From assembly GCA_016177765.1 (NCBI GenBank), contig JACOUP010000008.1, positions 836,864-900,863 of the forward strand: a DNA stretch of 64,000 nt. The letters are read 5' to 3'. Within the stretch, counting starts at the first letter, position 1; the number at the start of each line of letters is the position of its first letter. A model generated the notes under the pieces. That model made no database searches. It was given only the letters and a program-made list of their open reading frames with translations, and was not told the DNA's origin. Below are positions 30,380 through 64,000 of the stretch, in pieces. The translations under genes were made by a program, and so were the position numbers. The stretch comes from Deltaproteobacteria bacterium. GTDB lineage: Bacteria; UBA10199; JACPAL01; JACOUP01.

Positions 30380-30430
30380 AATCATTTGAACCTTTACAAT
30401 CGTCCAGTTATCGTCTATTATTCGTCTAAC

Positions 30431-31459: not shown

Positions 31460-31576
31460 ATTAATGGCTCAAAAAAACAGGACCTAGGTCAGATTCGGGA
31501 TTGACTAAAAACCATCTTCGTGTTGGGTGAGGCCGGAAGATGTGATTGAGGTACAAAAATAACGCGGGAGGAGACC

Positions 31577-33146: not shown

Positions 33147-33331
33147 GGGGTGGGATTCGCCCTTCGCTAAAGACAGGCCAATCACGCTCAGGGCGTCAGC
33201 GCCTCACTTCCGGCGGCCGGAATTGGCCGCCTCATCCTCCCTCATTGGTCGGCGTTCGGCGCCGTTCTCATCCCACCAACAGAATTCAATAAAAAAGCCT
33301 CCACGAGGGAGGCTTTTTTTATTGATGCTCC
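33147..33331. repeat. Composite repeat copy A (units U1 + U2): tRNA 3-prime-end mimic, GC hairpin, and perfect terminator hairpin aaaaaagcctccacgagggaggcttttttt
   Basis: Near-identical to 45407..45673. U1 is 33147..33249 and U2 is 33250..33331. The terminator hairpin is at 33291..33320. Confidence 0.85.
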
Positions 33332-33340
33332 CCGTATTGG

Positions 33341-33775
33341 GTGCGAACCCGAACTGAACTCCGGCGTTATAAAACGTTTACCATTGAGTTCCATGGGGGC
33401 GTCTTTACCGGATTCCGGAACTACACCCACTACCTCGTCCGGCCTGACGAACCGATTCCCCTTCAATTGCTCCGCAAGACTCACGTCAACATAGGTCCAC
33501 CACGGCCAAAATGCCACCCTATTTCAGGCCAGCCTCTTATGTACGGCCAAACCCCCTTCGGGTTCAAGAACATCAATGGCACCCTTATAGAAGACCCCTT
33601 GGAGCAATTCATCCTCAAACAGATGCGGGAAATGCGCCAGAAGGGGTCTAGCCTCAACGAGATTGCCCGCTATTTAACGAATTCTGGGATCCCGACCAAG
33701 AATGGTGGACGGTGGCAGAGCAATACAGTGAATCAAATCTTGTCGCGTCTTAATTCTGGTTCACGATCTTTTTAA
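33341..33775 (+). pseudogene. remnant of a large serine recombinase (recombinase domain only; catalytic resolvase domain missing)
   Basis: PFGFKNINGTLIEDPLEQFILKQMREMRQKGSSLNEIARYLTNSGIPTKNGGRWQSNTVNQILS matches the serine-recombinase recombinase domain. Only 144 aa; no resolvase catalytic domain upstream. Confidence 0.6.
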
Positions 33776-33795
33776 ACCAATGCATTCCCATCGGC

Positions 33796-34452
33796 TCACT
33801 TTCTGAATCTCTTATAAATCACCGGAACAAGCGACAACAGCACGAACAAAATCGTTGAAAGGATCAGATGGAAGGTCGCCTTCTCTTTGGCTCCCGTTGC
33901 CCCGCTTAGAAGGGAGGCGGCGAAGTAGGTATAGACAAAGGTGCCGGGGATCATCCCCAAAAAAGAGGCAAGGGCGTAGTCGGTAAATCGGACCTTGGAA
34001 AGACCGGCACCGAAGTTGATTCCGTTGAAAGGGAAAAGAGGGACGAGCCTGAGATAAAAGGTCAGGCGAAAACCGTGACTCGCCGCTTGTTCATCGAACT
34101 CCTTCCATTTTCCTTTCAGAAAACGCGAGACAAAATCCCGTCCCAAGTATCGTGCCCCGAAGAAACCGGCACCGGCGGCAAGGTTCGAGGCAATCACGTT
34201 GTAGAAAAATCCGGGGATGACCCCATACAGGGCACCGATGGCTAAAGTCAGGGCCGAACCGGGAAGACCAAACAACCCCCCGATGCCATAGACAAGAATG
34301 AGAACAATCGGAATCCACCAGAGTTCATGGGCTGATTTTGTAAGGGCGATGAGATGGCTTGGAGTCAAGAGTTGCCGCAAGGGTGTAAAAAAGTAGGCGG
34401 CGAACCCGCCAACCAAGATCAACAGAAAAAGAAGTGGCTTAAAATTCTTCAT
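33796..34452 (-). CDS. TVP38/TMEM64 (DedA-like) family membrane protein
   Basis: DedA/SNARE-associated signature (GxxxGFxxxG...FPFNGINFGAG). Confidence 0.75.
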   Translation of the reverse strand: MKNFKPLLFLLILVGGFAAYFFTPLRQLLTPSHLIALTKSAHELWWIPIVLILVYGIGGLFGLPGSALTLAIGALYGVIPGFFYNVIASNLAAGAGFFGARYLGRDFVSRFLKGKWKEFDEQAASHGFRLTFYLRLVPLFPFNGINFGAGLSKVRFTDYALASFLGMIPGTFVYTYFAASLLSGATGAKEKATFHLILSTILFVLLSLVPVIYKRFRK

Positions 34453-35062
34453 CGAGATCCGAGAGTGTTTTTAAAAGTTCGACCTTGAGGCGGCTTCTGT
34501 TGGCCTTTTCAAGAGTCTTATTGAGAACCTTTTCCGTACTCCAAGGAATTCCTTCAAAAAGAAAGGGATGCGCCTTCTTCATCCCGATCAGATAATAACC
34601 CCCGTCCTTGGCCGGGCCGAGGACAAGATCGGCTTTATCCAGATGATCAAAGGCATCGCACAAGAGTGATCGGTCTATCTCGACACAATCGGTGCCAATT
34701 AAGACGGTTCGGTCTGAACCATTCACTAACGATTCCTGAAAGGCCGCTGACATTCGTTGTCCCAAATCTCCATCACCTTGCGGCTTTATCTCCAAAGATG
34801 GAAACCATTGCCTGAAATCGTTTTCCTTTTGAGGAGGATCGAAACATAGAGTCCGTCGATACTCACCATTCAATGGAAGCGTCTTTTTTATGACCGTCTC
34901 GATCATTTCCCGATAGCGAAGGGCCGCCTCGACTGCGCCCACGGTTCGGGCCAATCGGGTCTTCACTTTCCCTGCCTCTGGGTACTTCGCAAAGATGAGG
35001 AGACGGTTGTTCAACAACAGTTTCCTTTCTGAGGCATCTCTCCGACCACTTTCAATCCGCAA
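34439..35062 (-). CDS. TIGR04282/DUF2064 family protein (arsenosugar-cluster associated)
   Basis: LLIFAKYPEAGKVKTRL N-terminal motif of DUF2064. The true start is probably a TTG near 35020. Confidence 0.7.
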   Translation of the reverse strand: MRIESGRRDASERKLLLNNRLLIFAKYPEAGKVKTRLARTVGAVEAALRYREMIETVIKKTLPLNGEYRRTLCFDPPQKENDFRQWFPSLEIKPQGDGDLGQRMSAAFQESLVNGSDRTVLIGTDCVEIDRSLLCDAFDHLDKADLVLGPAKDGGYYLIGMKKAHPFLFEGIPWSTEKVLNKTLEKANRSRLKVELLKTLSDLDEEF

Positions 35063-36057
35063 TCAAAAAGCCCATAGTGGGTAGAGAGATCGCCGGTCAC
35101 GTTGAAGTGTGAGGCATACCGTGTCTGTTGAAGCATCGCGGCGGTATTGCTACAAACCGGAACCGGTCGTCCTTTTTCAAAGAGGTGATGGTCATCCAGA
35201 AAGAAGGCATGAGGTGATTCCGGAATTGTTCCCAAGTAGGTAGCGATCTGTCCGTAATCCTCACATCGGTCTTCGAGTTTCATTTTGAATGCCCGGATCG
35301 TCGTCGACCAGAAGTCGATCATCCCCGCCTTTGCCTCCACCCCCGGATTTTTCAACTCAATCCGGGAACGGGAGGCAACACGATAATCGTGGCATCCAAC
35401 CTCAAGAAGAAGACGGCGAAAGTCTTCGAGGTAAAGGGCACCACCGAGGCACTCACCCAAGAGGACTGGATCTTCCGACAATTCCTTCGGCATCCGGCGA
35501 CCGGTAAAAATATCAGAAAAGTAAAGCTCTCCGCCTGGCTTCAAGACACGAAAGATTTCGGAGAAGACCCGACGCTTATCGGATGAGAGATTGATGACGC
35601 AGTTCGAGACAATCAGATCGACGGAGTTATTTTTGATCCCAAGCGATTCAAGATCCTCGATGTATCCCTTTAAGAAACGGATGTTCGATTGTGAGTAGCC
35701 AAACTGCCTCATCTGGTAGGGGAGATGTCGTCTTGCCACTTCCAGTTGTTCGTCGGTCATATCGACGCCGATGACCTGACCTTCCGGACCGACCAACTTG
35801 GAAAGGATGTAGGAATCGCGTCCGGTGCCGCACCCAAGGTCCAGGACCGTCAGCCCTTTCAAGACCGATGGGATCGGAGAGCCACAGCCATAACATTTTT
35901 CGATAATCTCCGGGTGAATCATCTTCACAATTTTACGGAGATGGGACGGAAAACTATTGGTGCCGCAACAGGCGTTGGTCTTGAGGTCTTTTTTTCCCGT
36001 CAGGACCTTCCCGTAATAATTTTTAACTTCTTCTTTTGGATTCATTATCTGTGACAT
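35011..36057 (-). CDS. arsM: arsenite S-adenosylmethionine methyltransferase
   Basis: SAM-binding VLDLGCGTG, the ArsM-typical SNCVINLS motif, and conserved cysteines (N-terminal CC, C-terminal CC). Confidence 0.8.
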   Translation of the reverse strand: MSQIMNPKEEVKNYYGKVLTGKKDLKTNACCGTNSFPSHLRKIVKMIHPEIIEKCYGCGSPIPSVLKGLTVLDLGCGTGRDSYILSKLVGPEGQVIGVDMTDEQLEVARRHLPYQMRQFGYSQSNIRFLKGYIEDLESLGIKNNSVDLIVSNCVINLSSDKRRVFSEIFRVLKPGGELYFSDIFTGRRMPKELSEDPVLLGECLGGALYLEDFRRLLLEVGCHDYRVASRSRIELKNPGVEAKAGMIDFWSTTIRAFKMKLEDRCEDYGQIATYLGTIPESPHAFFLDDHHLFEKGRPVPVCSNTAAMLQQTRYASHFNVTGDLSTHYGLFDCGLKVVGEMPQKGNCC

Positions 36058-36075
36058 GCGAATTTCCTCCCTTTC

Positions 36076-37032
36076 TTAAATCAGTGAACCGGAACAGGAG
36101 CTTCCAGCACCTGCGGTACAACCGTAACAGTGATTCGCAAACTGAATCGGGTCGGATGCCAGTTCATCAAATGACTCGATCTCCCAAATCGTTCTTCTTT
36201 TTCCTCCAAGTGGAATCTCAAGCATCTGATTAAAATCACAATCGTAGATTTTGCCATCCCAGCTTATGGAAACGAGGTTGCGACACATCACATGACCGGC
36301 CGCCTCTTGGTTGAAATGGGTCACCAGAAGGTCGGTGTATTGATCCAACTCACCTCGACGTTCCAAATAATCGTGAAATCTCTTGATCGGCATGTTGGTG
36401 ATCGTGAGCAGGTGATTAAATTCGATGTCGAAGAGTTCTTTCAGTTCCTTTTTGTAATCGTCCTCCAACTCCGATTGAGGTGGTGGTAGGAAAGGACCGA
36501 CCGGATTGTAAACAAGATCAAGGAGAAGACCGGTTCCCTCTTTTCCATATCCCAACTCATTCAGGAGCCGAAGCGCCCGGATACTTTTATCAAAGACCCC
36601 GTGGCCCCGTTGGGCCTCGACGTTTTCTTTAGAGTAACACGGAAGTGATGCGACGATCTGAACACGATGTTCCTTGAGGAAACCCGGAGTCTCCTCCTGG
36701 CCCTTTTGAAAAAGAACCGTCAGATTACAGCGATCAATCACCTCGCGTCCGAGGTTTCTCGATTCCTCAACCAGAAAACAAAAGTTCGGATTGAGTTCCG
36801 GCGCCCCGCCGGTCAGATCAACCGTCCGAATCGTGGGTGACTTCTTCAAAAGTTCCATGAGCCGTTCGGCGATCTTTCGCTCCATGATCTCGGTCCGCTT
36901 CGGCCCCGCCTCTACATGGCAATGAAGACAGGCGAGATCACACAGCTTGCCGACATTGATCTGCAAAATCTCAAGCGGCTTCCGTCTGATTTCGAGCCGG
37001 TTCTTTTTTAATATCTCCATGAACGGGATCAT
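36076..37032 (-). CDS. arsS: arsenosugar biosynthesis radical SAM protein ArsS-like
   Basis: CxxxCxxC radical-SAM motif (CDLACLHC) and a C-terminal cysteine cluster CYGCTAGAGSSCSG. Confidence 0.75.
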   Translation of the reverse strand: MIPFMEILKKNRLEIRRKPLEILQINVGKLCDLACLHCHVEAGPKRTEIMERKIAERLMELLKKSPTIRTVDLTGGAPELNPNFCFLVEESRNLGREVIDRCNLTVLFQKGQEETPGFLKEHRVQIVASLPCYSKENVEAQRGHGVFDKSIRALRLLNELGYGKEGTGLLLDLVYNPVGPFLPPPQSELEDDYKKELKELFDIEFNHLLTITNMPIKRFHDYLERRGELDQYTDLLVTHFNQEAAGHVMCRNLVSISWDGKIYDCDFNQMLEIPLGGKRRTIWEIESFDELASDPIQFANHCYGCTAGAGSSCSGSLI

Positions 37033-37660
37033 GAAAAACCCTCCGTCTAAAATTGACAATTATTTCCAACGAAACCCCCAGTCGCCAGAAAATCATCGTG
37101 AGCCAATTGACCAGCGTTGTCTTGAGATAACCGTGTCGTTCCCATCTCCTGCTACTTGTCACTGCTTTCTTCGGGTAGAAACAAAGAGGGCCTAAGGTCT
37201 TCATCTTTTGAATGAGCAGGACATCCTCCAAAAGTGGTGCCTCCGGGTAACCCCCCAACTTTTTAAAATGGGCCTTGCGAATGAAAATCGCCTGATCGCC
37301 GTAGGGGAGTTGAAAAATTCTTTCGCGAAGCCGAACACCAAACTCGATCAGACAACTCTTGAAACCATTTTGGTCCAACGCGAATCGAAAGGCCCCGCCT
37401 ACGAGTTCCGGCCTTTGATTCATGACTTGGGCAAGTTCGATAAGATCATCCGGATTCACTTTTGTGTCGGCATGAAGAAAAACGAGCAAGTCTCCTTTTG
37501 CCTTCGCCGCACCCACATTCATCTGATAGGCACGATTGGCGATTCCTGTCTTTTCCGCATCAATAACGATGACCTCCAATTGAGAATCTTTCTCAAGTTC
37601 GGAAAGATTTCGCTTGAGATGAACGCCGTCGTTCAAAGAAGGAATGATGACGCTGATCAT
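36971..37660 (-). CDS. family 2 glycosyltransferase (TIGR04283-like, arsenosugar-cluster associated)
   Basis: GT2 N-terminus (ISVIIPSLN...DAEKT). Positioned upstream of arsS/arsM. Confidence 0.7.
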   Translation of the reverse strand: MISVIIPSLNDGVHLKRNLSELEKDSQLEVIVIDAEKTGIANRAYQMNVGAAKAKGDLLVFLHADTKVNPDDLIELAQVMNQRPELVGGAFRFALDQNGFKSCLIEFGVRLRERIFQLPYGDQAIFIRKAHFKKLGGYPEAPLLEDVLLIQKMKTLGPLCFYPKKAVTSSRRWERHGYLKTTLVNWLTMIFWRLGVSLEIIVNFRRRVFHDPVHGDIKKEPARNQTEAA

Positions 37661-39084
37661 TCGAACCTCCATTGGAAAAATCTTTTCAGCCATTTTTGTG
37701 TTCGAGGAGAAAGTCGGGATCGCTGATAGGTGTCGGCGATCCGTTTGGAGATTTCGGCGAGTGTCGGATAGATGTGAATCATCGAGGCGACTTTTTTCAG
37801 TCCGATCCTTTGGTGCATCGCCAACGCAAGTTCGTGCAGGAGATCCCCGGCATGAGAACCGACGATGGTTACACCCAACAACTGGTCCGATCCCTTCTCG
37901 GTCAACACCTTGATGAATCCCTCATCCTCACGGTCACAGACGGCGCGATCCAAATCCTTGAAGGAATAAGAATAAATGTCATGGTGGAGACCCTTTTCCT
38001 TGGCTTCTTTTTCGTTCAAGCCAACTCGCGCCACCTCCGGATCGGTGAAGGTGCACCAGGGGACAACACGGTAGTCGATCTTCGATTTTCCGGGAAAGAG
38101 TGCATTTCTTAGGATCAGTCGAGCCTGAAAATCGGCGGTGTGGGTGAATTGATAAGGACCGACGACATCGCCACAGGCATAGATATGTTTGGAGGAAGTT
38201 CGGAGAGTGTCGTCCACCTCGATCCCTTTTTTTGAGAATTTTATTCCCGCCTTCTCCAAGTCAAGGTTGTTCACGTTTGGGGCACGACCGACGGCGACTA
38301 GAATTTTGTCGAACGGGATTCGTTTTTCCTTTTGGCCTTCTTGTACGGTCAGCTCAAAAGATTCACCCGATTTAATTTCAACCGCCTTGTGTCCCGTCAA
38401 GACCTCAATCCCTTCACGTTCAAATCTCTCCTTGATGAGAGCAGAAACCTCCACATCCTCCCGGATAAGAAGGGAGTCCAACATTTCAACGACAGTAACC
38501 TTCGATCCCAATCGGGTGAAGACCTGTGTCAGTTCGGCACCAATCGGGCCTCCGCCGAGGACGACAAGCCGCTTTGGAACTTCCGTAAGCCCCCAGATAT
38601 TATCGCTGGTCAGGATCGGCACTTCTTGAATCCCCTTGATCGGTGGCACAAAGGGGGAGGCTCCGGTAGCAATGACAAATCGTTTTGCCGACAGGGTGAC
38701 GGTTCCATCGGTGATCTCGTAGGGGGAGATGAATCGAAAGGAACCAAAGTGAAGAGCAACACCGAGTCCACGGAACCGGTCGGGTGAATCATGCGGCTCC
38801 AATTTTTCCTGCACCGACCGAACCGATTTCATGATTTGGGAAAGATTGATTTCCGGATTGAGATCGGAAAGGCCAAACCGATTCCCCGTCCTCGCATCAT
38901 ATAAAAGCTTCGCCGTTCGGATGATCGCCTTCGATGGGACACAACCGGTATTGAGGCAATCGCCGCCCATCTTCTGTTTCTCGACTAAGGCGACCTTTAC
39001 TCCCAACCCTGCCGCACCGGCCGCCGACACGAGGCCACCCGATCCGGCGCCGATGACAATCAAGTGGTATTTTCTCAGGTTCAT
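37657..39084 (-). CDS. FAD-dependent pyridine nucleotide-disulfide oxidoreductase (dihydrolipoyl dehydrogenase/MerA-like core, no NmerA and no C-terminal Cys pair)
   Basis: GAGSGG FAD motif, redox-active GDCLNTGCVPSK disulfide, and a dimerisation domain. Confidence 0.8.
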   Translation of the reverse strand: MNLRKYHLIVIGAGSGGLVSAAGAAGLGVKVALVEKQKMGGDCLNTGCVPSKAIIRTAKLLYDARTGNRFGLSDLNPEINLSQIMKSVRSVQEKLEPHDSPDRFRGLGVALHFGSFRFISPYEITDGTVTLSAKRFVIATGASPFVPPIKGIQEVPILTSDNIWGLTEVPKRLVVLGGGPIGAELTQVFTRLGSKVTVVEMLDSLLIREDVEVSALIKERFEREGIEVLTGHKAVEIKSGESFELTVQEGQKEKRIPFDKILVAVGRAPNVNNLDLEKAGIKFSKKGIEVDDTLRTSSKHIYACGDVVGPYQFTHTADFQARLILRNALFPGKSKIDYRVVPWCTFTDPEVARVGLNEKEAKEKGLHHDIYSYSFKDLDRAVCDREDEGFIKVLTEKGSDQLLGVTIVGSHAGDLLHELALAMHQRIGLKKVASMIHIYPTLAEISKRIADTYQRSRLSPRTQKWLKRFFQWRFE

Positions 39085-39110
39085 GGAAGCCTCTTCAATT
39101 CATGAATTCT

Positions 39111-39545
39111 TTATGAATTGCAAGAGCTACAACTCGCCGCTGTAGGTGTCGCGTAAACAACCCCCACCACCGCGCCATAAACGAGGTGACCGATCAGACT
39201 TCCCATGGCCGGAGCCACGGCACCGGAGAAGAATCCCATCCCCATCATCGGCATCACGACAATCTGGGCCATGAGCCAAGGGGCAATCCCGTACAAGGCA
39301 CCACGGATGATTGCCGGTCCGGGAAGTCTGTCACTAAAAAAGGTATACCCAAAGGCGAGAACCGTCCCGATCATAAAGTGGGCGACCCAACCGAGTGTCA
39401 CCGATCCCCCCATGACCCCGGCCAACATCCCCGCAATATCCATCTTCGGTAACCCCATCATCGGGGCGCCGAAGGTGGCAACGATGGTGATTGCCACCGT
39501 CCCCAGAATCCCTGCCAGAATCCCCTTCTTAATGTTGATCTTCAT
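39111..39545 (-). CDS. hypothetical membrane protein with C-terminal Cys cluster
   Basis: Start assigned to MKINIKKG with a Shine-Dalgarno upstream. Four TM helices; C-terminal CSSCNS. Confidence 0.45.
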   Translation of the reverse strand: MKINIKKGILAGILGTVAITIVATFGAPMMGLPKMDIAGMLAGVMGGSVTLGWVAHFMIGTVLAFGYTFFSDRLPGPAIIRGALYGIAPWLMAQIVVMPMMGMGFFSGAVAPAMGSLIGHLVYGAVVGVVYATPTAASCSSCNS

Positions 39546-39654
39546 AAGTCCCCCTTTTGTTTGGTTTCTATACGTTTTGATGCCGGGGACAGGAAAAAGT
39601 CTTGAGAGATTTTGTCTTCCCATTCCTTGAGATTATGCTAGATTTGCAACCCTT

Positions 39655-40278
39655 GTGGAAAGTCTTCCAAAATCCCAAGATGTTTCCCCCGTTGCCGCAT
39701 CTAACACCAGTGAGAAGGATTTGATTCGGGGCCTCCGCGAGAAGGCCGATTGGGCCTTTCGCGAATTGATCTCTCGCTGGTCGGATAAACTGTACCGGCT
39801 TTCACTCCGGTTCTTGAGACGCCCGGAGGAGGCCCAGGAGATCGTTCAGGAGGTGTGCTTGAAGGTGGTGGAAAAGATTGACACATTTGAAGGTTCCTCT
39901 TCATTATATACTTGGCTCTATCGGGTCACCGTGAACGAGTCGTTGATGAGGCTTCGGCCCGATAAAGGGAAGAAAACCGTTTCGTGGGAGGATGTCTTGC
40001 CAAAATATGAGAATGGCATCCACACGCAGGAGTTTTCGGATTGGGCAAAACTCCCGGACGAGAGGTTTGCCGAAAAAGAGATACAAGAGTTTGTCCAGTC
40101 GGCCATTGAACTCCTGCCCGATGATCTCAAAACCGCCTATCTCTTGAAGGATGTCGAGCAACTGCCGGAGGATGAGGTCTGCAAGGTTTTAGAGCTCACC
40201 AAACCAGCCATGAAAAACAGGGTTCACCGTGCCCGGCTATTCTTGAGAAAAAAGATTGAGGCGAAGTATGTCCGTTAA
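39655..40278 (+). CDS. RNA polymerase sigma-70 factor, ECF subfamily
   Basis: Region 2 (LYTWLYRVTVNESLMRLR) and region 4 motifs. Confidence 0.8.
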   Translation: MESLPKSQDVSPVAASNTSEKDLIRGLREKADWAFRELISRWSDKLYRLSLRFLRRPEEAQEIVQEVCLKVVEKIDTFEGSSSLYTWLYRVTVNESLMRLRPDKGKKTVSWEDVLPKYENGIHTQEFSDWAKLPDERFAEKEIQEFVQSAIELLPDDLKTAYLLKDVEQLPEDEVCKVLELTKPAMKNRVHRARLFLRKKIEAKYVR

Positions 40279-40555
40279 GCACAAAATGATCCGGGCCATG
40301 TTTGGCCTCATGGGACTCCCGACCTGTGAGGAGGTGGAACAGTTCGCCTACGACTTTTTGGAGGAGGCTTTGGATTCATCGACAATGAAGGCGGTGGGGC
40401 GACACCTCAGGGCGTGTAAGAATTGCCAGCGGTTCATCGCGGCCTATCGCAAGACGGCCGCGTTGGGGAAAATGTTTGAGAAACCGCAACTCGATCCGGA
40501 ATTCAAAGAGAGTCTCTTTGAGTTTCTGGTTCAAAAGGCAGGAGGAAGGGTATGA
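40256..40555 (+). CDS. zinc-finger (zf-HC2) anti-sigma factor
   Basis: C..H...C..C pattern (PTCEE...HLRACKNCQRF). Overlaps the sigma factor stop. Confidence 0.6.
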   Translation: MRRSMSVKHKMIRAMFGLMGLPTCEEVEQFAYDFLEEALDSSTMKAVGRHLRACKNCQRFIAAYRKTAALGKMFEKPQLDPEFKESLFEFLVQKAGGRV

Positions 40556-41175
40556 AAGAGATTTTGATTCCGCTCGGTGTCAGTTTTCTCTCCGGGATGA
40601 TCTTGGGACTGGAACGGGAGATGTCGCACAAACCGGCCGGACTCCGCACCCAGGTCCTTGTGAGCCTGGGGACGACCCTCTTTATTATTTCGGGGCAGTT
40701 GTTTGGCGGAGAGGTCATCCGACTTGCCGCCAATGTGTTGACCGGGTTGGGGTTCTTGGGGGCCGGTGTCATCTGGCAACAGAAGGGAAATGTTCGGGGA
40801 CTCACAACGGCGGCACTCATCTGGGTTAATGGAAGCCTTGGCGTTGCCATCGGATTTCAACAATACGTCTTGGCCGGTGCAGGAGTTCTTCTCACTCTCA
40901 TTGCCCTGCGGCTGTTGGGATTTGTCGAAGAAAAAATTAAGAGCAAGTGTCGGGTTTTCCGTTACGAGGTTGTCACAAAAGAGAATGAAAAAGTCTTGGA
41001 GACGATCCATGAAGCCTTGAATCGTTGTCATTTTCAGGAAGATCCACTCACCTTTGAAAAAGGGGCTGATGCAGTCACGGTTCGTTTTGCCTTTTGCAAC
41101 CCGCCGTTACGGCATCAGGAGTTTGTCGAAAAACTTCGCAAGATGACTGATGTCCTCGGGGTCAAAACCGAATGA
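40552..41175 (+). CDS. MgtC/SapB family protein
   Basis: GLEREMSHKPAGLRT signature of the MgtC family. Confidence 0.8.
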   Translation: MKEILIPLGVSFLSGMILGLEREMSHKPAGLRTQVLVSLGTTLFIISGQLFGGEVIRLAANVLTGLGFLGAGVIWQQKGNVRGLTTAALIWVNGSLGVAIGFQQYVLAGAGVLLTLIALRLLGFVEEKIKSKCRVFRYEVVTKENEKVLETIHEALNRCHFQEDPLTFEKGADAVTVRFAFCNPPLRHQEFVEKLRKMTDVLGVKTE

Positions 41176-41798
41176 CCGATGAGAATCACCGTCTACGATT
41201 AAAATACCAATGGACCTCATGGGTCTATGACCTCCTCGATTATCCGTGGGAGCGGCAATACCGAAAGTGGCGGCCGGAGATCTTGAAAGACGTTAACGGC
41301 CGGGTTTTGGAGGCCGGAGTCGGAACAGGACACAACCTGCGTCACTATTCTTCGTCCGTAAACCTCACTGCCATTGACTTAAGTTCGGGGATGCTTGGTC
41401 AGGCGCGAAAACGGGCAAGACAGGTCCGATGCAGAGTGGACCTCCAAGAGGCCGATGCCACAAACTTGAACCGATTCACCGATGGAATTTTTGATTGGTA
41501 CGTCTCGACTTTCATGTTCTGCGTAATGCCCGACCGCTTGCAACCTATTGCCCTGAAAGAGATGGCGCGAATTCTTAAACCGGGGGGGAGGTTCCGCCTG
41601 ATTGAGATCCTTTATTCCAAAGACCGCGCCCTACGACTCCGCCAGAAAATCCTCGCTCCGTTTGTCGAGTTTGTCTATGGGGCACGGTTCGATCGAAAAA
41701 CCTTGGATCATCTTCGCGCGTTTCCATCGCTCAAGGTAACTCGCACGACCTATTTGAAGGCGGATACCTATCTCTTGATTGAAGGGGAAAAAATTTAA
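41172..41798 (+). CDS. class I SAM-dependent methyltransferase
   Basis: [10 protein letters not shown] motif I and post-I acidic residue. Confidence 0.75.
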
Positions 41799-43837
41799 GG
41801 ATTATATTTTTCAAAATCGTTGATGAGCTTTTTGGCTTCTTCCAAGCTCGTTGTCGGGCGCTTGCAGATATTATTCTCGCAGACGTAGATCGTTGGTTGA
41901 TCGTTCTGCATTGTTTTGCCTTGCAGGATCGCGGGGTATTTTGAATCACCGAGAGGGGCAGCCTCCCCCATTGCCAAGACCTTGTTGGGGATAAAAGATT
42001 CAAAAAAGAATTTTCTGATTTCCAGCATTGTTGGATCATCCAGCCTTCCGACGACGGCCACCTCTTTGGACCGATCGAGGTGATAATCAATAGCTGTCAT
42101 CAGCATGGAATACCCGGCGGGGTATGAGGCGGCAATGCCCGACACGGCGTTCAAAAGTTCCCCCAATCTCTTTTGATACCCTTGATCGAGGGTCAGATCA
42201 TGAAGTTTTAAGAGATTGAGGACCGAAACGGAATTTCCGGATGGGGTGACACCATCATCAAATTCTTTCTTACGAACCAGAAGTGATTTTTCTTCCGCCT
42301 CGGCCAGGTAATAGCCGCCATTCTTTTGATCCCAAAAGAGTTTATCCTGCTGGGATTGAAGATCGACTGCCCACCCAATCCATTGCGGGTCAAAGTCGCT
42401 TTCATACAGGGTGAGAAGACCATGGATGAGAAAAGAATAGTCGTTGACCGTTCCGGAATAGCGGCTCTCGCCATCGCGGTATCTCCGTAAAAGTTTTCCG
42501 TCCTGATATAGCTTTTGCCGGATGAAGGCGGCCGACTTCCGGGCGGCATCGAGATAACGAGCCTCTCCCAAGACCTGGTATCCCTTTGCCATGGCGGCAA
42601 TCATCAACCCGTTCCAGGAAGTCAGGATCTTGTCGTCCTTGTGCAACGGCGGGGCTTTAGATCGTTCTTCCTTGCTGAGACGATAATAATCTCCCTCTTT
42701 TCCGACCTCACCGGCATCTTGTGCAGAGTAAAATCCCCCTTCGGGGTGGGTCATCTCCCTCAAGACATAATCAAGGGATTGTGTGACAACCTCGGCATAC
42801 CTTTGCTTTTTGGTGATTTGGTATGCTTCGAGATATGTCCAAACGAGGAGCGCATTGTCGTAGAGCATTTTTTCATAGTGGGGTTCATTCCAGTCTTTAT
42901 CTGTTGCATAGCGATGAAACCCGCCTCCAATGTCGTCATAGATACCTCCACGGGCCATCGCATCAAGGGTTTGCGTCACCATGGCAAGGGCCTTGGGGCT
43001 GCCCGTCCTGCGATGGATTCTCAAGAGAAGTGAAAGCTCCATGCTGTGTGGAAACTTCGGTGCACCTCCGAAACCACCGTTTGTTTTGTCGAAGTTTTTC
43101 TCCAACTGTTGAAACGTCTTTTGGAGAGTGCGGGTATCCGCATTTGCCGTGCCGGAGACTTCGCTTTCTTTTTGAAGAAACTCGGTGATTTTGGTCCCCG
43201 ACTCCAGAATCTTTTCCGGATTCTTTTGCCATGAGTCCTGAATTTGAGAGAGAAGTTGAAGGAATTGTGGACGCCAGAAGAACGTTCCGCCAAAAAACGG
43301 TTTCAAATCGGGAGTCAGAAAAATAGAGAGCGGCCAGCCGCCGCGGCCGGTCATCCCGACGACCGCATCCATGTAGATTTGATCGACATCCGGGTGTTCC
43401 TCCCGATCCACTTTAATACTGATAAAATCTTTATTGAGGATTTCCGCAACATCCTCTCTTTCAAACGAATCTTTCTCCATCATGTGGCACCAGTAGCAGG
43501 TCGAATAACCGATGGAGAGAAAGATGATCTTGTTTTCCTCCCGTGCCGCTCGAAAGGCTTCATCGCCCCACGGGAACCAATGAACAGGATTGTCTTTGTG
43601 CTGGAGAAGGTAGGGACTTTTTTCTTCGCCGAGGCGGTTGTATTTTTTGATGGAGGTTTTGCCTTGATTAGGGTTGACGGACTCGACGCGGGAAGAAAAA
43701 TAATCTCCCTTCCAGAAGGCAATGGCCCCCAGTATCAGTACGCCATCCCTCCTGACCTGCTCGTGAAGATCGTCCGGGAGAAATTCATTGAGAAGACCCC
43801 AACGCTGACGCTCCTCCAAAGGTATCCCAGCGATCAA
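41795..43837 (-). CDS. thioredoxin domain-containing protein YyaL (DUF255 + six-hairpin glycosidase-like domain)
   Basis: SPYLLQH...WFPW...[11 protein letters not shown] thioredoxin-like N-terminus, then a long alpha/alpha-toroid region. Confidence 0.8.
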
Positions 43838-44003
43838 GAAAACGAATACGTCAGTACCATCGCCCTTCTCGACGTTCCGGAGTCAGAGGTCAGAGAGATG
43901 CTCAAAGACCAACCTCAATTCCTCGCCCACTTCCTCGATTGCCGAATCCATGCAAGAGAGGTGCTGGAAGGAAAACTCGCCGACCTAAAAACACACCTTC
44001 GGG

Positions 44004-44273
44004 TCAGTTGAGCTTGGAGGTCTTGAACCCCGTCTTGTTCGCTTCCTGAATGATCTGGTCAGCGGTCGCGGGTGATCCGTACTTGCAAATCCCCTCTCCC
44101 TTTTCCCGATCAATCGTGATCTCCTTGCAGAGTGATGAGAGTTGCTTCTTGACCTTCGCCTCGCACATCCCGCAGGTCATCCCCTCGATCTTCATCTTGA
44201 GAGTCTGTGGTTCCGCCGCTGACAGCAGTCCCGGCAGAAGTAATGCCATGACGACAGTGATGATTTGTTTCAT
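44004..44273 (-). CDS. merP: periplasmic heavy-metal-binding protein MerP-like
   Basis: Signal peptide then an HMA domain with GMTCGMC. Start at MKQIIT, preceded by GGAGG. Confidence 0.7.
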   Translation of the reverse strand: MKQIITVVMALLLPGLLSAAEPQTLKMKIEGMTCGMCEAKVKKQLSSLCKEITIDREKGEGICKYGSPATADQIIQEANKTGFKTSKLN

Positions 44274-44563
44274 TTTGTTCCTCCTTGGATTTCTTTGACT
44301 GCCTTTGCAATATCTCCCAAACAGCAACTCTTCTTTGGATTGACAGCTTCGCACCGACAGTTACCGGCTTTTATTTGCGCCCTTAAAAAATCCGGTATTG
44401 TTGTCTTTCCGGTTTTTTTGATCTCCTGCTCGATATCCTGCCTAAAAATATGAAAACAGTAACAGATCGGCGATGAATCATACCTCTCTTTCACAGGAGA
44501 TGCCGGGGCTTGGGCTGTCTCCTTGTCGCTGACTTCACACTCTCCGTCAGAACAGTTTCCCAT
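44270..44563 (-). CDS. Cys-rich BFD-like [2Fe-2S]-binding domain protein (tentative)
   Basis: ICYC...CRC...SCC cysteine pattern with spacing reminiscent of BFD-like domains. Sits between merT and merP. Confidence 0.4.
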   Translation of the reverse strand: MGNCSDGECEVSDKETAQAPASPVKERYDSSPICYCFHIFRQDIEQEIKKTGKTTIPDFLRAQIKAGNCRCEAVNPKKSCCLGDIAKAVKEIQGGTK

Positions 44564-44573
44564 AGTTGGCTCC

Positions 44574-44918
44574 TTAAGATGCAATCAAATGCGGTCCGAT
44601 CAAAAAGATCGCCGCCAATGCCGTTGAGATCCACAAGAGAATCTTCGTCCATTTCTGACTCGTCGGGTTGCAGAGCTTGGCATCCTCGCCTGCCTTGCCG
44701 GCAGGCAGGCAAACCGCCTGTTTCCTTCCATAAACCAGGTAAAAGGCGGTCCCCAATAAGAGGATGGTCAGGATCGTAAAATACTTCTGATAGGGGACCA
44801 GGGCCGAGGCAAAACCAACAGTTCCGGTCAGTCCCAACAAAAGAAGCGGCAAGGCACAACAGGAACCGAAAAGGGCGGTCGCACTCGCCCCAACGGCGGT
44901 GATTCGTGAGAGTTGCAT
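44574..44918 (-). CDS. merT: mercuric ion transporter MerT
   Basis: Three TM helices with the GSCCALPLL vicinal Cys pair in TM1 and a second Cys pair (C..C) in the cytoplasmic loop. Confidence 0.7.
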   Translation of the reverse strand: MQLSRITAVGASATALFGSCCALPLLLLGLTGTVGFASALVPYQKYFTILTILLLGTAFYLVYGRKQAVCLPAGKAGEDAKLCNPTSQKWTKILLWISTALAAIFLIGPHLIAS

Positions 44919-45349
44919 CAGTTCTTTCCCCCTCTCTTTCGACGACCTGCCGACTCGATAATCTCACAAATGCAGGTCGTTTTACTCTTGCGAACCCTTT
45001 TCCAATTTCTAAGAAGACCCCCGATTGTTTTCTTCAACCGACCCATCTCCTTCATCTTTTGATGCAGGGTCGAGATTTTCGTCTCAAGGAGTTCCACCAC
45101 ATGTTCGCAGGGCTTTCCTTTAAGCCTCTTTGCCTCGATCACCTTCTTGATTTCATCAAGGGTCAATCCAAGCCCCTGTGCCGTCTTGATGAATCGGATA
45201 ATATCAATTGTTTCCTGCGGATAGAGACGGTAGCGAGAGGAAGACCTCGGAGCCACAGGGACGAGACGCTCCTTTTCATAGTACCGGACCGTCCACGGAT
45301 CGACACCACACTGTTTTGCCAACTCGCCAATAAACAACCCCGAATGCAT
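44918..45349 (-). CDS. merR: MerR family transcriptional regulator
   Basis: N-terminal HTH (IGELAKQCGVDPWTVRYYE), coiled-coil, and C-terminal cysteines. Its stop abuts the merT start. Confidence 0.8.
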   Translation of the reverse strand: MHSGLFIGELAKQCGVDPWTVRYYEKERLVPVAPRSSSRYRLYPQETIDIIRFIKTAQGLGLTLDEIKKVIEAKRLKGKPCEHVVELLETKISTLHQKMKEMGRLKKTIGGLLRNWKRVRKSKTTCICEIIESAGRRKRGGKN

Positions 45350-45406
45350 AGAGGCATTATAAACCTTTGAGTCGACTCTAAGGTCAAATTGTTTTTTTAC
45401 GGCATC

Positions 45407-45695
45407 CGGCGTTCGGCGCCGTTCTCATCCCACCAACAGAATTCAATAAAAAAGCCTCCACGAGGGAGGCTTTTTTTATTGATGCTCCGGGGGTGGGATT
45501 CGCCCTTCGCTAAAGACAGGCCAATCACGCTCAGGGCGTCAGCGCCTCACTTCCGGCGGCCGGAATTGGCCGCCTCATCCTCCCTCATCGGTCGGCGTTC
45601 GGCGCCGTTCTCATCCCACCAACAGAATTCAATAAAAAAGCCTCCACGAGGGAGGCTTTTTTATTGATGCTCCGGGGGTGGGATTCGAACCCACG
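45407..45695. repeat. Composite repeat copy B (U2-U1-U2), ending in a tRNA 3-prime-end-like fragment (T-arm GTGGG-TTCGAAT-CCCAC + acceptor half, minus-strand sense)
   Basis: U2 at 45407..45488, U1 at 45489..45592, U2 at 45593..45673, tRNA-like 3-prime fragment at ~45670..45694. No D or anticodon arm follows. Confidence 0.85.
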
Positions 45696-45797
45696 ACCAA
45701 GTGATTACAGGTTCCCCATCACTTTCATGATGGCCTGGACTATCTCTTTACCCTCTTTTAGAGGGTAGTGGGCGCTCGAGGGGAGATTATTCTTTCG

Positions 45798-46232
45798 TCA
45801 CTCCCTAGTCTCTGCACCTTCCTCCCACTTTTGAGGTTGGGAAGCTTGGCTCAGGATTGCCGTGTCCCTTAGCTGGGATTTAGGGTTCCCTGAGTTCACC
45901 CACTTTTCGACCACGGTCACCCGTGGAAGCTGCATTGAGGCATGGGTTTCACGGTGACAATTCGCACAGAGCATCACACATTTATCCAATTCCTTTTGGA
46001 CACGTTGCCAACTTCGCGAATGACCATACTGCGAAATGGCAAAATCCTTTTGGAGAGGATCTAAATGGTGAAACTCCAAGGCCTCCAGGCATTTCATGTA
46101 ACCGCAAAGGTTACATTGGCCGCCTTTGTAGTCGATTGCCATTTGACGGACTTTCTTTCTCCGTTTAGCAACCGCCTTAATATTCGCTTCTCGGCGGTCC
46201 TGATACCTTCTTGTCTCCCGTCTAGCCACCAT
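45798..46232 (-). CDS. HNH endonuclease family protein
   Basis: CNLCGY...HHLDP...CANCH HNH/zinc-finger motif. Confidence 0.75.
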   Translation of the reverse strand: MVARRETRRYQDRREANIKAVAKRRKKVRQMAIDYKGGQCNLCGYMKCLEALEFHHLDPLQKDFAISQYGHSRSWQRVQKELDKCVMLCANCHRETHASMQLPRVTVVEKWVNSGNPKSQLRDTAILSQASQPQKWEEGAETRE

Positions 46233-46418
46233 ACCTCCTTTCTACAGTCACCTACTCTGCCGCTGAGCTACCCCGGAAAAAATAGGATGCCGACCTGGTT
46301 TCCTAACAGATGTCCAGAGACGGTTCAAGTGGAGAATTTCAAAGCGTTTTTAGTGTTCCCTCTAGTCTTCCTACCCAAAAAGTGATAGATTGGGCAAAAT
46401 CTAAAAAAAGGGGGGGGT

Positions 46419-46991: not shown

Positions 46992-48641
46992 ATGGGGCTA
47001 ACACAAAGTGATGCTTTAGGCCTTAGGGATACGCTGACCAGTCTTTGGAATCGCGCCCGTCGGGAACAATATTCCCAAGTCCCAACGTCGGAGCAGATGA
47101 CTAGGGCCGAACAGGCATTGGATTGGCTCGCGGCCGGAGAGAGTGACAGGCTCGCCGAGGACGCAAAGGCCCAAGAGGCGTTGCGGGTGGTCCTCTCTTT
47201 TGGCGGGCGGTACCTCCATTTTTCGCGGGAGGCCAGCTTTGCCAACCTCCTTGCTGAGGCATGGACCGTTTTAAGGAGAATCGTTGAGGGAGGGAGTCCG
47301 CCGGCCGCTGGCAAGGCGGCGCCAACGCAACCTTTTAGTCCCTCTCTTTTTTCTGCAAGCCCCTTTCCCCCATTGCTCCGGGCAGACGGCTTTGAGAAGA
47401 CCTTTGAAGGGTCTCTCGATCAGGTTCGTCAGGCCTTGAGGGGATCACCCGAGGGGGGCAGGATTTTTACACCCCAGGAGGCCGACCTTGTCAGTCGGGA
47501 TATAGAAACCCTCCAGCGAATCATAACCGATGAAATAGTCCCGCGGTTTGGCATCTATCTCTCACCGAGATACAGCGTAGTCGTTCTTTCCAGACAGGGG
47601 GCGCCGTATGCCTGGATCATCCGGCACCGGCCGACAGGGCATGTGGTGACCAGCCGGTTTTCTGACCAACGGAGACCTTCTCTCATTTTTCCTTTTTCCC
47701 GGAAAGAGGTGATGCTCCGTTTTGACCGGCAAACCGACACCCTCTTTTTAGCCGGGAGAACGGCGGCTGGGAATCCATTCTCACTGGAGGGGCGTTTTGC
47801 CCGTTCCTCGGAGGGACGGTTTATTCGGGTTCAGGGCAGGCAGAGGGATGCTGACCCCTGGATCCGAAATTTTTTTGGCATTGATGAATGGCTGCAAGAA
47901 ATGTGCGGGGCTAAGGGGGATAATGAGGGTGACCGGGTCGATTATTTTCGTGCCGGGAACGACCGGATGCTCACCCGGTGGGACCCCTCGGGACTTTTTA
48001 AAGATGCCACCGTACAGAATTGGAAGGGAGGACTCTTTGGTTTAAGTCCGGTTATTGCCAGAGATGGACGTCGTTACCATTATGACCCGGGTAAGAGGCT
48101 TTACCCTCGATGGGCCGGCATTGTCAGGGGGCCCAACCAGCGACCGATCGTCTTTGAGCAGGTCCACGACCTGGGACTCAATGTTATTCGTTACGAGATC
48201 GCCCACCCCTACCTTGTTGCCCGTCTGGAGGTTCTGGGTGTTTCGGAGGTCGAGATCATCTTCCGTTTGGTCGAGGAGGATGGCGATTCCATGCAGGTTC
48301 GGGTCGATTTAATGGGAGAAGATGTGATTTTGGAACCGGAGGGAGGCCGAGGTCGGGGAGGCCCCGGGTTCGCCCCTGTTGGTCCTTCACCATCCATCGT
48401 GCCTGGCGATCCAAATACCCCTTTTCGAACGGAAGGACTTCGGACAGTATGGGAAGGGCTGACTCCTGGGGAGAAGGCACAATTTGGGAACCTGCCGGAA
48501 GGGTCGGGTGACACACCATTGTATGAAGCACTCTTGGTCGAGAGGGTCGGTTCAGAGGCGGTTCACGGCGGGGTCCTTTTAGAACGGGGGGCGGCGGAGA
48601 GGGCGGCCCTTGGGAGTCGCCGGATGGTTTTTGAACGATGA
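46992..48641 (+). CDS. hypothetical protein (549 aa, no recognisable domain)
   Basis: Long ORF with strong GC3 bias; Arg/Gly-rich; no motif recognised by eye. Confidence 0.5.
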   Translation: MGLTQSDALGLRDTLTSLWNRARREQYSQVPTSEQMTRAEQALDWLAAGESDRLAEDAKAQEALRVVLSFGGRYLHFSREASFANLLAEAWTVLRRIVEGGSPPAAGKAAPTQPFSPSLFSASPFPPLLRADGFEKTFEGSLDQVRQALRGSPEGGRIFTPQEADLVSRDIETLQRIITDEIVPRFGIYLSPRYSVVVLSRQGAPYAWIIRHRPTGHVVTSRFSDQRRPSLIFPFSRKEVMLRFDRQTDTLFLAGRTAAGNPFSLEGRFARSSEGRFIRVQGRQRDADPWIRNFFGIDEWLQEMCGAKGDNEGDRVDYFRAGNDRMLTRWDPSGLFKDATVQNWKGGLFGLSPVIARDGRRYHYDPGKRLYPRWAGIVRGPNQRPIVFEQVHDLGLNVIRYEIAHPYLVARLEVLGVSEVEIIFRLVEEDGDSMQVRVDLMGEDVILEPEGGRGRGGPGFAPVGPSPSIVPGDPNTPFRTEGLRTVWEGLTPGEKAQFGNLPEGSGDTPLYEALLVERVGSEAVHGGVLLERGAAERAALGSRRMVFER

Positions 48642-48715: not shown

Positions 48716-49921
48716 GTGCATATTATCCGCATGTGGATTGAGCGCTATTATGGATCCGTCTGCGAGAGGCTTGCCCGAGAATTCCCTGCCGTTTTATTGA
48801 CAGGGCCGCGGCAGGTGGGCAAGACGGCCCTATTGCGACATGACTACCCTCATTCTACCTATGTCAGTTTTGATCATCCCGCTGTGGCCCGGCAAGCCGA
48901 GTCAAATCCCAACGAGTTTTTTGCCTCTCTCAAGGAACCGGTCATCCTCGATGAAGTCCAGTACGTGCCGGAGATTTTTCGTCATCTGAAAGTGCTCATT
49001 GACCGAAACCGAAAGAACGGCCGATTCTTCCTGACCGGATCGCAAAGTTTTTCACTGATGGAAGGGGTCTCTGAAAGCTTAGCCGGCCGTTGCGGCATTG
49101 CCGAGATGCACTCCCTCTCCCTTGATGAAATCAGTCGCCATGACTCAAGTGTGTCTGATGCTCAATATATTATCCAAGGAGGCTTCCCAGAGCTCTACAA
49201 AGGTGGCATTGAGAACGTGAAGGATTGGTTTGGATCGTATCTGGCGACCTATTTAGAACGGGATGTCCGAAACGTCAGGAACGTTGGAGATCTGAGGGAT
49301 TTTGAAAGATTGTTGCGAGCCCTCGCTTCGAGAACGGCCCAGCTTCTTTCTTATTCAGATTTGGCACGTGACGTTGGCATCGCACCCAATACTGCAAAAC
49401 AGTGGATCTCCATCCTCAGAGCCTCAGGACAAATTTATCTTCTGGAACCTTACTTCGAAAGCCATGGGAAAAGGCTGATTAAATCACCCAAACTCTATCT
49501 GATGGACACGGGTCTCGCCTGTTATCTGACAGGGATTTCCTCTTGGGAAGATTTGATCCGTTCCCCATTAACCGGGGCGATCTGGGAGACGTTTATTGTT
49601 GGGGAGGTCGTTCGCTATTTTCTCGCTCGGGGCGAGAAATACCCGCTGTGGTTTTGGAGGACTGCCTATGGGGATGAGGTGGATTTGTTGATTGAACGGG
49701 GGGGGAGGTTCATTGCGATTGAAGCAAAATTTGCCGAATCACCGTCCGGAAGTGATTGGAAGGGAATCAAGGCCCTGAAAGATTTCTATGGTGAAAAACG
49801 TATTGAGAGGAGCTACCTGGCTTGTCGGACAAAACATCCCTACTTGAATTCCGATACGAACACAAAGGTGATTCCTGCCAGCTCGATCGGAAAAAGGAAG
49901 CTGGAAAAATCGAGGGAGTAA
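48716..49921 (+). CDS. AAA+ ATPase with DUF4143 C-terminal domain
   Basis: Walker A LLTGPRQVGKT, Walker B ILDEVQ, DUF4143-like C-terminal half. Confidence 0.8.
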   Translation: MHIIRMWIERYYGSVCERLAREFPAVLLTGPRQVGKTALLRHDYPHSTYVSFDHPAVARQAESNPNEFFASLKEPVILDEVQYVPEIFRHLKVLIDRNRKNGRFFLTGSQSFSLMEGVSESLAGRCGIAEMHSLSLDEISRHDSSVSDAQYIIQGGFPELYKGGIENVKDWFGSYLATYLERDVRNVRNVGDLRDFERLLRALASRTAQLLSYSDLARDVGIAPNTAKQWISILRASGQIYLLEPYFESHGKRLIKSPKLYLMDTGLACYLTGISSWEDLIRSPLTGAIWETFIVGEVVRYFLARGEKYPLWFWRTAYGDEVDLLIERGGRFIAIEAKFAESPSGSDWKGIKALKDFYGEKRIERSYLACRTKHPYLNSDTNTKVIPASSIGKRKLEKSRE

Positions 49922-63665: not shown

Positions 63666-64000
63666 GGGGGCGAACTGGCTTCGACGGAAGGAGTGACGCC
63701 TTACCCGGCATGCCGAGGTTGCTGGTTCCTCGTAAAAAACTGGCAAACAAAAGTAGACGCAACTCTACCTATGGCCGCTTAATTGCAGCCACGTCTCTCG
63801 AGTCTTCTCCCGCGGGGTTTGAGAGACGCCAACAGCGGGATCGCGAGTCTTGGTCGCCTCTTTTGAGACTCGTTAAACAATAAAGGGGCATGTCCCAGAA
63901 AATCCGGCCCGTGGGAGTTTCTGGGAGTCCTAAAACGCGGAACTAAGCATGTAGTTCGGGGAGGTTGATCCCTTTCGGACGCGGGTTCAATTCCCGCCGC
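63666..64000 (+). ncRNA. ssrA: tmRNA (ssrA), truncated at the window end
   Basis: 5-prime GGGGGCGAACTGGCTTCGACGG (tRNA-like acceptor/D). GCATGCCGAGG...CCTCGTAAAAAA pseudoknot region as in E. coli ssrA. Tag ORF ending ...LPMAA-TAA at 63780..63782. 3-prime CTAAGCATGTAG...GGACGCGGGTTCAATTCCCGCCGC T-arm. The last ~8 nt (CTCCACCA) lie beyond the window. Confidence 0.85.

Follow-up and report, generated by a model that had tools for sequence, protein, structure and literature searches.

Att-type scars, probably left by stacked integrative elements, at the 3' end of an intron-containing tRNA-Asn(GUU) gene in a Deltaproteobacteria bacterium

A composite repeat was examined in a 64-kb stretch of DNA (the window) from a "Deltaproteobacteria bacterium" metagenome-assembled genome (MAG; assembly GCA_016177765.1, contig JACOUP010000008.1). 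The repeat, made of two parts designated U1 and U2, is probably a set of att-type scars, left by integrative elements that lie one behind the other at the 3' end of a presumably functional tRNA-Asn(GUU) gene, the stacked elements being a 12-kb arsenic/mercury island and a cargo-less 185-bp remnant. The tRNA gene is complete, the tRNA fragments at the locus are correctly oriented copies of its stretch between T-loop and 3' end, U2 is the trailer and terminator of the tRNA, the cargo lies between identical copies of U2, and both junctions recur in other genomes. Events of this kind are familiar from tRNA-anchored islands that have decayed and stacked; what is unusual is that a gene for half a recombinase domain, abutting the junction, has been kept in a small family of islands with no recognisable integrase.

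Structure of the composite repeat

Repeat computation over the window placed a 185-bp unit (U1+U2) at 33147-33331 and 45489-45673, and an additional lone U2 at 45407-45488. U1 comprises 103 nt including its tRNA-like start, opens with GGGG(G)TGGGATTCG, and occurs at 33147-33249 (U1a) and 45489/45490-45592 (U1c) with a single mismatch between the copies (T at 33246, C at 45589). The U1 bodies that follow the tRNA-like start, in the role of an element arm, span 33160..33249 and 45503..45592, and the hairpin GGCGGCC-GGAATT-GGCCGCC lies at 33212-33231 and 45555-45574. U2a (33250..33331) and U2b (45407..45488) are 82 nt long and 100 % identical, whereas U2c (45593..45673) is 81 nt long and has a T6 run where the other two have T7. 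Each part of U2 can be followed in U2a, which consists of a small hairpin (33250-33264), an inverted copy of the tRNA T-loop and T-stem (GTTCTCATCCCACC, 33264-33277), a bidirectional terminator, and the closing tRNA 3' end and trailer (TTGATGCTCC, 33322-33331). The terminator, AAAAAAGCCTCC-ACGAG-GGAGGCTTTTTT, is found at 33291-33319, 45448-45476 and 45634-45662; the window, searched with up to 4 substitutions allowed, has U1, U2 and the terminator nowhere else. Repeats 82-173 nt long that agree at 99-100 % lie well outside what chance would produce. An earlier reading made from the letters of the DNA (the sequence-only reading) had described U1, U2, the hairpin and three copies of the terminator, and all of these are present where it had placed them or close by.

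On the plus strand the left flank is followed by GGGGTGGGATTCG-U1a-U2a, then by the 12,075-bp island, which runs from CCGTATTGGGTGCGAACCC to ACGGCATC, then by U2b, (CTCC)GGGGGTGGGATTCG-U1c-U2c and GGGGGTGGGATTCGAACCC of the tRNA. Read in the sense of the tRNA (minus strand), the order is tRNA, U2c, U1c, an 18-nt tRNA fragment, U2b, the 12-kb island, a small gene, GGAGC, U2a, U1a, a 13-nt tRNA fragment and the chromosomal flank. The arrangement of 1.0 copy on the left and 1.5 copies on the right, in which the sequence-only reading had seen an att-site duplication with tandem amplification, was broadly borne out as an att-type duplication with one tandem extra unit at the tRNA 3' end.

The population was represented by Logan short-read assemblies (SRR121133xx-134xx), from which contigs were retrieved via exact flank and island proteins. 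For about 30 nt these contigs continue into the repeat where it borders on the left flank (U1), the island (U2a) and MerR (U2b), and then they break off; where it borders on the tRNA they do so within 11-18 nt. Since an assembler with k=31 stops in this manner, the breaks at the unique/repeat borders indicate a true repeat; the order within the 1.5 copies and the T6/T7 difference are known from the source assembly alone.

The tRNA-Asn gene and its group I intron

The sequence GGGGGTGGGATTCGAACCCAC at 45674-45694, which had been labelled a tRNA fragment, belongs to the 3' exon of an intact minus-strand gene for tRNA-Asn(GUU) that contains an intron, and the full tRNA with a matching 3' end, for which a search had been proposed, was thus found on the spot. 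The 5' exon (nt 1-35, TCCGGGGTAGCTCAGCGGCAGAGTAGGTGACTGT) lies at 46277..46244 and the 3' exon (nt 36-73, TAATCACTTGGTCGTGGGTTCGAATCCCACCCCCGGAG) at 45707..45670, with a group I intron of 536 nt (45708..46243, minus strand) between anticodon nt 35 and 36. ARAGORN run on the unspliced window reported a tRNA-Arg only and missed the tRNA-Asn gene; when the exons were joined by hand, it called a tRNA-Asn(gtt). The join ...CUGU|...CCUG|UAAUC (U35|U36) is the sole one that yields a 7-nt anticodon loop, the splice sites are as expected, with a U before the 5' site and a G before the 3' site, and the join at a related metagenome locus, L150, is the same.

The intron matched Rfam family RF00028 at 45716-46007 on the minus strand with 86.8 bits (gathering score 50), its catalytic core falling at 45716-45917; the alignment stops 8 nt before the 3' end, and in its 5' part it is misaligned where it crosses an open reading frame (ORF). 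This ORF (45798-46232) encodes an HNH-like protein of 144 aa, which matches Pfam HNH only weakly (E=0.0055; 17.3 bits, where the cut-off is 21.4) and in which the motifs CNLCG...EFHHLDP...CANCH (CxxC...HH...CxxCH) can be read. Group I introns at position 35/36 of tRNA-Asn(GUU) genes, carrying HNH endonuclease genes and missed by annotation tools, have been described mostly from Patescibacteria, with 9 of 28 outside that group (Nakagawa et al. 2026, PMC13011429). The intron in the window agrees with that class in its tRNA, its U35|U36 site, its ORF of putative HNH type, its length of more than 500 nt and its being missed by standard tRNA finders, and differs in its host, which is not a member of the Patescibacteria but, according to protein labels, a "Deltaproteobacteria bacterium" MAG. 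On these sequence features it is the published class in another host, with splicing predicted. Because of the 35/36 intron, the tRNA-Asn gene and the island anchored at it are invisible to standard tRNA finders, and an island finder working from tRNA calls and integrase genes would overlook the island on both counts.

A matching tRNA 3' end was found in intronless tRNA-Asn(gtt) genes of many phyla, and several of the loci with such an end also hold split Asn genes; the word search with this 3' end reached more than 120 unrelated phyla and returned no relative of the repeat unit. At nine loci (L078, L049, L018, L054, L052, L053, L110, L103, L036) blastn placed tRNA-Asn exons about 200-560 nt apart. 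These loci belong to Patescibacteria MAGs and several "uncultured Gammaproteobacteria" MAGs; ARAGORN reports no tRNA at them, and they look like the 35/36 intron class, also beyond Patescibacteria. In the population of the window, four contigs (L009, L010, L011, L014) end in the tRNA 5' exon at window position 46250, 6 nt short of the intron, and four others cross the intron; the stops may reflect a variant allele that is intron-less or has a differing anticodon stem.

Displaced tRNA fragments and the shared terminator

The tRNA-like start of U1 had been read as a mimic of a tRNA 3' end. It is instead a displaced copy, 13-18 nt long, of the segment of the local tRNA that runs from the T-loop to the discriminator. 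The distal fragment (fragment iv; GGGGTGGGATTCG, 33147..33159, minus strand) is an exact 13-mer, the reverse complement of tRNA-Asn nt 57-69, and covers the 3' part of the T-loop, the 3' strand of the T-stem and 4 acceptor nt; it occurs in the window at 33147, 45490 and 45675 only, and meets U1 at ...GATTCG|CCCTTCGC. The middle fragment (fragment ii; CTCCGGGGGTGGGATTCG, 45485..45502, minus strand) is an exact 18-mer, the reverse complement of nt 56-73, which occurs in the window only there and in the real tRNA (45670-45687). Both fragments keep the orientation of the tRNA and are broken off in the T-loop.

The terminal TTGATGCTCC of U2 consists of the last four nt of the tRNA (GGAG, through the discriminator) and the trailer, and the terminator therefore belongs to the tRNA gene itself. 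The description of the terminator as perfect and bidirectional stands, with U2c (81 nt, T6) being the copy of trailer and terminator that actually serves the gene. Beyond the terminator, U2 carries the inverted T-loop/T-stem copy, so that U2c and the real T-arm together make up an extended palindrome about 95 nt in length (z -7.3). A palindrome of the same kind, built with a different T-arm sequence of its own, is present at the related locus L152 (z -5.5). An integron attC site was considered for the palindrome and rejected: its ends, GTTC...GAAC, have a polarity opposite to R''(RYYYAAC)...R'(GTTRRRY), and no IntI or other integrase is present.

Recurrence of the junctions and the small junction gene

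The left junction of the island, in which the terminator and GCTCC are followed by |CCGTATTGGGT and then by a small gene, was found at no fewer than seven independent metagenome loci (the window, L150b, L152, L153, L154/L171/L172, L155, L173/L174). At each locus with DNA available, homology sets in directly after (T)GCTCC, with CC(N)TATTGGGT(G/C). Upstream of the junction most loci have a terminator-type hairpin (degenerate in L173/L174), and the sequences of these hairpins are unrelated, from which it follows that the homology begins exactly at the tRNA 3' end. The motif at the island end, P' (CCGTATTGGGTGCGAACCCGAAC, 33332..33354, plus strand), resembles a degenerate T-arm, follows directly after ...GCTCC and overlaps the start of the small gene; its resemblance to a T-arm reaches only p ~0.01, and P' was accepted as real because of its conservation across loci rather than on that statistic. 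Downstream of the small gene a tRNA-Asn(GUU) gene was found on the opposite strand at three loci, at distances of about 4-12 kb: in the window it lies about 12 kb away, in L150 it follows two tandem islands and has the same 35/36 intron, and in L152 it lies about 5 kb away and is intronless.

The second junction, fragment|CCCTTC, is shared by two genomes only, those of the window and L155. Upstream of the start of its small gene, L155 has flanking DNA and then TGCTCC and 13 nt of an L152-type tRNA-Asn; with GATGGCCAGACTC the last 18 nt of such a tRNA are present, ending in the T-loop. Next come |CCCTTCTC... (a U1-like stretch of about 95 nt after CCCTTC), a UUCG hairpin, GTTCTCGTCTGG..AACAG, a terminator, and GGCTCC|CCGTATTGGG (P'). 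This layout is that of the left end of the island in the window, composed with the tRNA sequence of its own genome, and it marks fragment|CCCTTC as a second real junction type, so that U1 is no one-off duplication.

The small gene of the window (33341..33775, plus strand) encodes 144 aa, with a family-specific N-terminal part of about 70 aa and the first half of the helix-turn-helix (HTH) of the Pfam Recombinase family (PF07508); residues 90-135 match PF07508 positions 5-50 only. The catalytic resolvase domain with its nucleophilic serine is absent, so that the protein does not qualify as a serine recombinase, and the N-terminal 70 aa have no match in Pfam, NCBIfam or PDB. Fifteen homologues of 133-197 aa share 54-72 % identity and a common C-terminus, and substitutions are skewed to third codon positions over codons 9-135, which points to purifying selection; the homologues, shared C-terminus and third-position bias rule out a chance pseudogene remnant of a large serine recombinase. 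Among 1.84 billion cluster representatives one cluster matches over the full length, and the C-terminal HTH alone is found in about 2,200 proteins. The AlphaFold2 model (mean pLDDT 55) was too poor for a structure search, and the profile of the protein had no match in PDB.

No integrase domain was found in the island of the window or in related islands; all four inspectable islands are without one. A distant relative of the small protein, in L163, does have a catalytic domain, and the small serine recombinase there lies about 4 kb from a tRNA-Asn; it was taken as coincidental, as it has no GCTCC/terminator junction. A phage or satellite origin was also rejected, the small-protein profile having no relative in IMG/VR, and the hits in viral contigs (six to the 16-nt junction motif, two to the hairpin) are chance matches that lack the gene and the terminator.

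Some further observations concern the related loci. In L150 (10001-19285) each of the tandem islands opens with a small gene (10001-10444 and 14114-14530), and their cargo includes AbiEii/AbiEi-like and CopG-like genes and an AAA and subtilase pair, with 69-nt direct repeats at 13601 and 18613. An ORF of 99 aa in L152 (1736-2035) fuses the N-terminus of RidA (L-PSP) to a second copy of the C-terminal HTH of the small gene, nt 1821-2026 being 72 % identical to nt 676-881, and is probably a decayed older island boundary. Genes for AAA_14/DUF4143 ATPases recur beside the small-gene junction or the tRNA-Asn locus (window 48716-49921, L171 5347-6558, L173 380-1654, L174 69-941, L141 3561-6422).

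The cargo island

The cargo island (33332..45406) is bracketed by the identical U2a and U2b, the latter on the tRNA side. Scans with Pfam and other collections identified VTT/DedA, DUF2064, ArsM-like methyltransferase, ArsS radical SAM (TIGR04167, 445 bits) and glycosyltransferase family 2 (GT2) genes; a gene for a flavin adenine dinucleotide-dependent disulfide oxidoreductase (MerA-like, below the cut-off); DUF6789, extracytoplasmic function sigma factor, MgtC and methyltransferase genes; and DUF255 thioredoxin-like, heavy-metal-associated (HMA), BFD-like, MerT-like and MerR genes. DUF2064, ArsM-like, ArsS and GT2 form a cluster at 34439-37693, in the same island as MerR, MerT, HMA and the MerA-like oxidoreductase. 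In the Pfam scans the island contained no int, xis or relaxase domain, and among ORFs of at least 100 aa no integrase was found in it or in about 4 kb on either side, the only recombinase-type match being the 144-aa protein with half of PF07508.

Proteins of the flanks were found in 12 and 9 Logan contigs, and two island proteins in 1 each, a possible sign that only a minority of the population has the island. As it now stands, the island would be able to move only by means of a recombinase acting in trans, or could be lost by recombination between the two copies of U2. For the island with its arsenosugar/arsenic-methylation cluster (ArsS, ArsM-like) and mercury-type genes, the identical 82-bp direct repeats should ease loss or exchange.

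Proposed history of the locus

An element would have recombined at the T-loop/3' end of the tRNA-Asn gene, given it a new 3' end and terminator, and displaced the old fragment, producing the order fragment-U1-U2. The 185-bp unit might then have become tandem by unequal exchange between the 13-18-nt repeats; alternatively, a second copy of the element could have collapsed through U2 x U2 homologous recombination into a cargo-less "solo" unit. The cargo island would have come in last, by a Campbell-type event at the distal pseudo-tRNA end, which would leave two identical copies of U2. That the insertion took place in the distal unit of an existing tandem is suggested by two observations: U2a and U2b are identical, and the T6 run and the C at 45589 both set the proximal unit apart from the distal one. 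This history combines the logic of tDNA islands, which are marked by a regenerated tDNA and a displaced fragment at their ends and for which sites in the T-stem region are the commonest class (PMC4383910), with that of att-flanked elements without an integrase, for which decay and tandem accretion are known (PMC5704250).

Several points weigh against the proposal that the repeats are scars of integrative elements. The GC content of the island (50.3 %) is near the window mean (52.4 %). Neither an empty site nor a circular junction was found; the search for an empty site by way of the flanking Band_7 gene returned homologues of 83-91 % identity in contexts that are not syntenic. No recombinase able to make the junctions was identified in the window, the related loci or viral contigs. 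The distal fragment is followed by TTTATTT and not by the remaining tRNA 3' end (CGGAG), so that there is no clean attR. The 82-bp identity far exceeds the 5-8 bp common to the same junction in L150 and L152, and with an identity of that length the final entry of the island may have been homologous rather than site-specific. The T6/T7 difference, finally, could be a homopolymer assembly error.

Comparison with known systems

The Yersinia high-pathogenicity island and other asn-tRNA islands of Enterobacteriaceae use tRNA-Asn as their target and are flanked by short direct repeats of the tRNA 3' end; unlike the island in the window, they have a P4-like tyrosine integrase beside the tRNA. In SSV1-type elements of archaea, attP lies within the integrase gene, which is split upon integration. 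The locus in the window resembles these in that a recombinase-related ORF starts exactly at the tRNA 3'-end junction with the tRNA-like motif in frame (SPYWV), and differs from them in that the frame is closed upstream in every distal and tRNA-proximal context and no catalytic domain is present at either end; with the frame closed at 2-18 codons upstream of the junction in each of the seven contexts, a split recombinase gene of the SSV1 kind was rejected.

With tDNA islands (Islander; PMC4383910) the locus has in common, at one end, a tRNA gene that is intact or regenerated and presumably functional; at the other end and at the internal tandem boundary, displaced pieces of the tRNA 3' part that start in the T-loop and point the same way; and an element that provides the new 3' end and terminator of the tRNA and carries cargo. 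It departs from them in that the island of the window has no integrase, tyrosine or other, its distal fragment lacks the last 5 tRNA nt, and its cargo is bracketed by 82 bp of identity lying almost wholly downstream of the tRNA. The arrangement also resembles cis-mobilizable elements (CIMEs) and their tandem accretion as described for Streptococcus integrative and conjugative elements (ICEs) of the ICESt1/ICESt3 type (Pavlovic 2004, Bellanger 2011, reviewed in PMC5704250): the elements are att-flanked, are without integration and transfer genes, and are stacked in tandem at their target gene's end, the repeats here flanking both the 185-bp unit and the 12-kb block. The differences are that no related functional ICE or integrative and mobilizable element with the same att was found in the 64-kb window, the related loci or viral contigs, that the four inspectable islands of the family, though without an integrase, keep one conserved small gene at the junction, and that the proximal "element" of the window is only 185 bp long.

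Alternative explanations

One alternative is that a site-specific recombinase was never involved and that homologous recombination alone shaped the locus, U1-U2 being the native region downstream of the tRNA-Asn gene, made tandem by slippage or unequal crossing-over, and the island having entered by a single crossover between U2-bearing DNA of a sibling strain and the chromosomal U2. The perfect 82-bp identity of U2a and U2b would be ideal for RecA-dependent exchange, no integrase is present, the GC content is like that of the surroundings, and the contig counts given above suggest a minority variant. Left unexplained, however, are the exact start of homology at GCTCC| in at least seven loci of different genomes with unrelated terminators, and the abutment of a T-loop-ended fragment on CCCTTC in two genomes with different tRNA-Asn genes; we consider this account unlikely. 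Also improbable, in our judgement, is that the locus belongs to an undescribed family of tRNA-Asn-specific islands which never carry a canonical integrase. Such a family would share a gene for a protein of 133-150 aa, with a unique N-terminal domain and half of a large-serine-recombinase DNA-binding domain, that starts at the crossover GCTCC|CCGTATTGGGT, and an attachment region in the form of a long palindrome in which a bidirectional terminator is enclosed by two inverted tRNA 3' halves. Here the small protein might serve for site recognition or as a directionality factor and bring in a recombinase from the host or a helper, or it might be part of a new recombination mechanism. The occurrence of the junction and small gene at seven or more loci, with no integrase in the inspectable islands, points to a group of elements with an unexplained integration route, and if the small protein does direct recombination at the tRNA 3' end, it would represent a new kind of site-specific system.

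The sequence-only reading had further proposed a small structured RNA or a family of miniature inverted-repeat transposable elements (MITEs), with repetitive extragenic palindromic (REP) elements as a related possibility, and neither is upheld. In favour of a functional RNA on the plus strand of U1-U2, which would be a small RNA converging on the tRNA or else a 5' leader or attenuator of the small gene, it can be said that the terminator stops about 20 nt ahead of the small-gene start, that some homologues have their annotated start codon within the terminator region, and that the hairpin, a UUCG-type hairpin with different stems, AACAG and the terminator are common to the window, L155 and L153. 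U1 nevertheless folds no better than shuffled sequences on either strand (z -1.1, -1.5), the folding signal of U2 is the terminator, and in Rfam 15 no family reached its gathering score with U1 or U2, the hits being sub-threshold leader and small RNA models driven by the terminator. Neither U1 nor the left flank has a sigma-70-like promoter, U1-U2 also adjoins the tRNA where no small gene is present, and the two or three sequences at hand are too few for covariation; we judge a functional RNA highly unlikely. That U1-U2 is a MITE- or REP-like dispersed repeat which lies here by accident, or that the 1.5-copy array is an assembly artefact, is hardly credible. Many REP and MITE sequences are palindromic and terminator-like, as this one is; but within the 64 kb its copies are confined to this locus, exact U1 words gave 0 matches in 596 Gb of species-representative genomes and 0 in JGI metagenomes, and the 185-bp unit has no terminal inverted repeats or target duplications. 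An artefact would be in keeping with the breaking of all short-read contigs in the repeat, which leaves the order to the source assembly, yet the source contig is 1.355 Mb long and the independent contig breaks at all four unique/repeat borders match the copy contexts of that assembly.

Other features of the window

An ORF of 549 aa (46992-48641) on the 5' side of the tRNA has no Pfam domain, and among 5.8 billion proteins the only homologue was its own fragment. On the far side of the island, the GC content falls to 0.44-0.45 at 30000-32000, where a Fic-domain gene (30386-31459) is located and a Band_7 gene begins; a related MAG (L141-L144) likewise has Fic and Band_7 genes side by side. A transfer-messenger RNA (tmRNA) gene, cut by the window end, lies at 63666-64000 on the plus strand (RF00023, 173.5 bits); tmRNA genes are another classic island target, and this one is about 18 kb from the tRNA-Asn gene. 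The largest ORF of the window encodes 1521 aa (16761-21326, minus strand).

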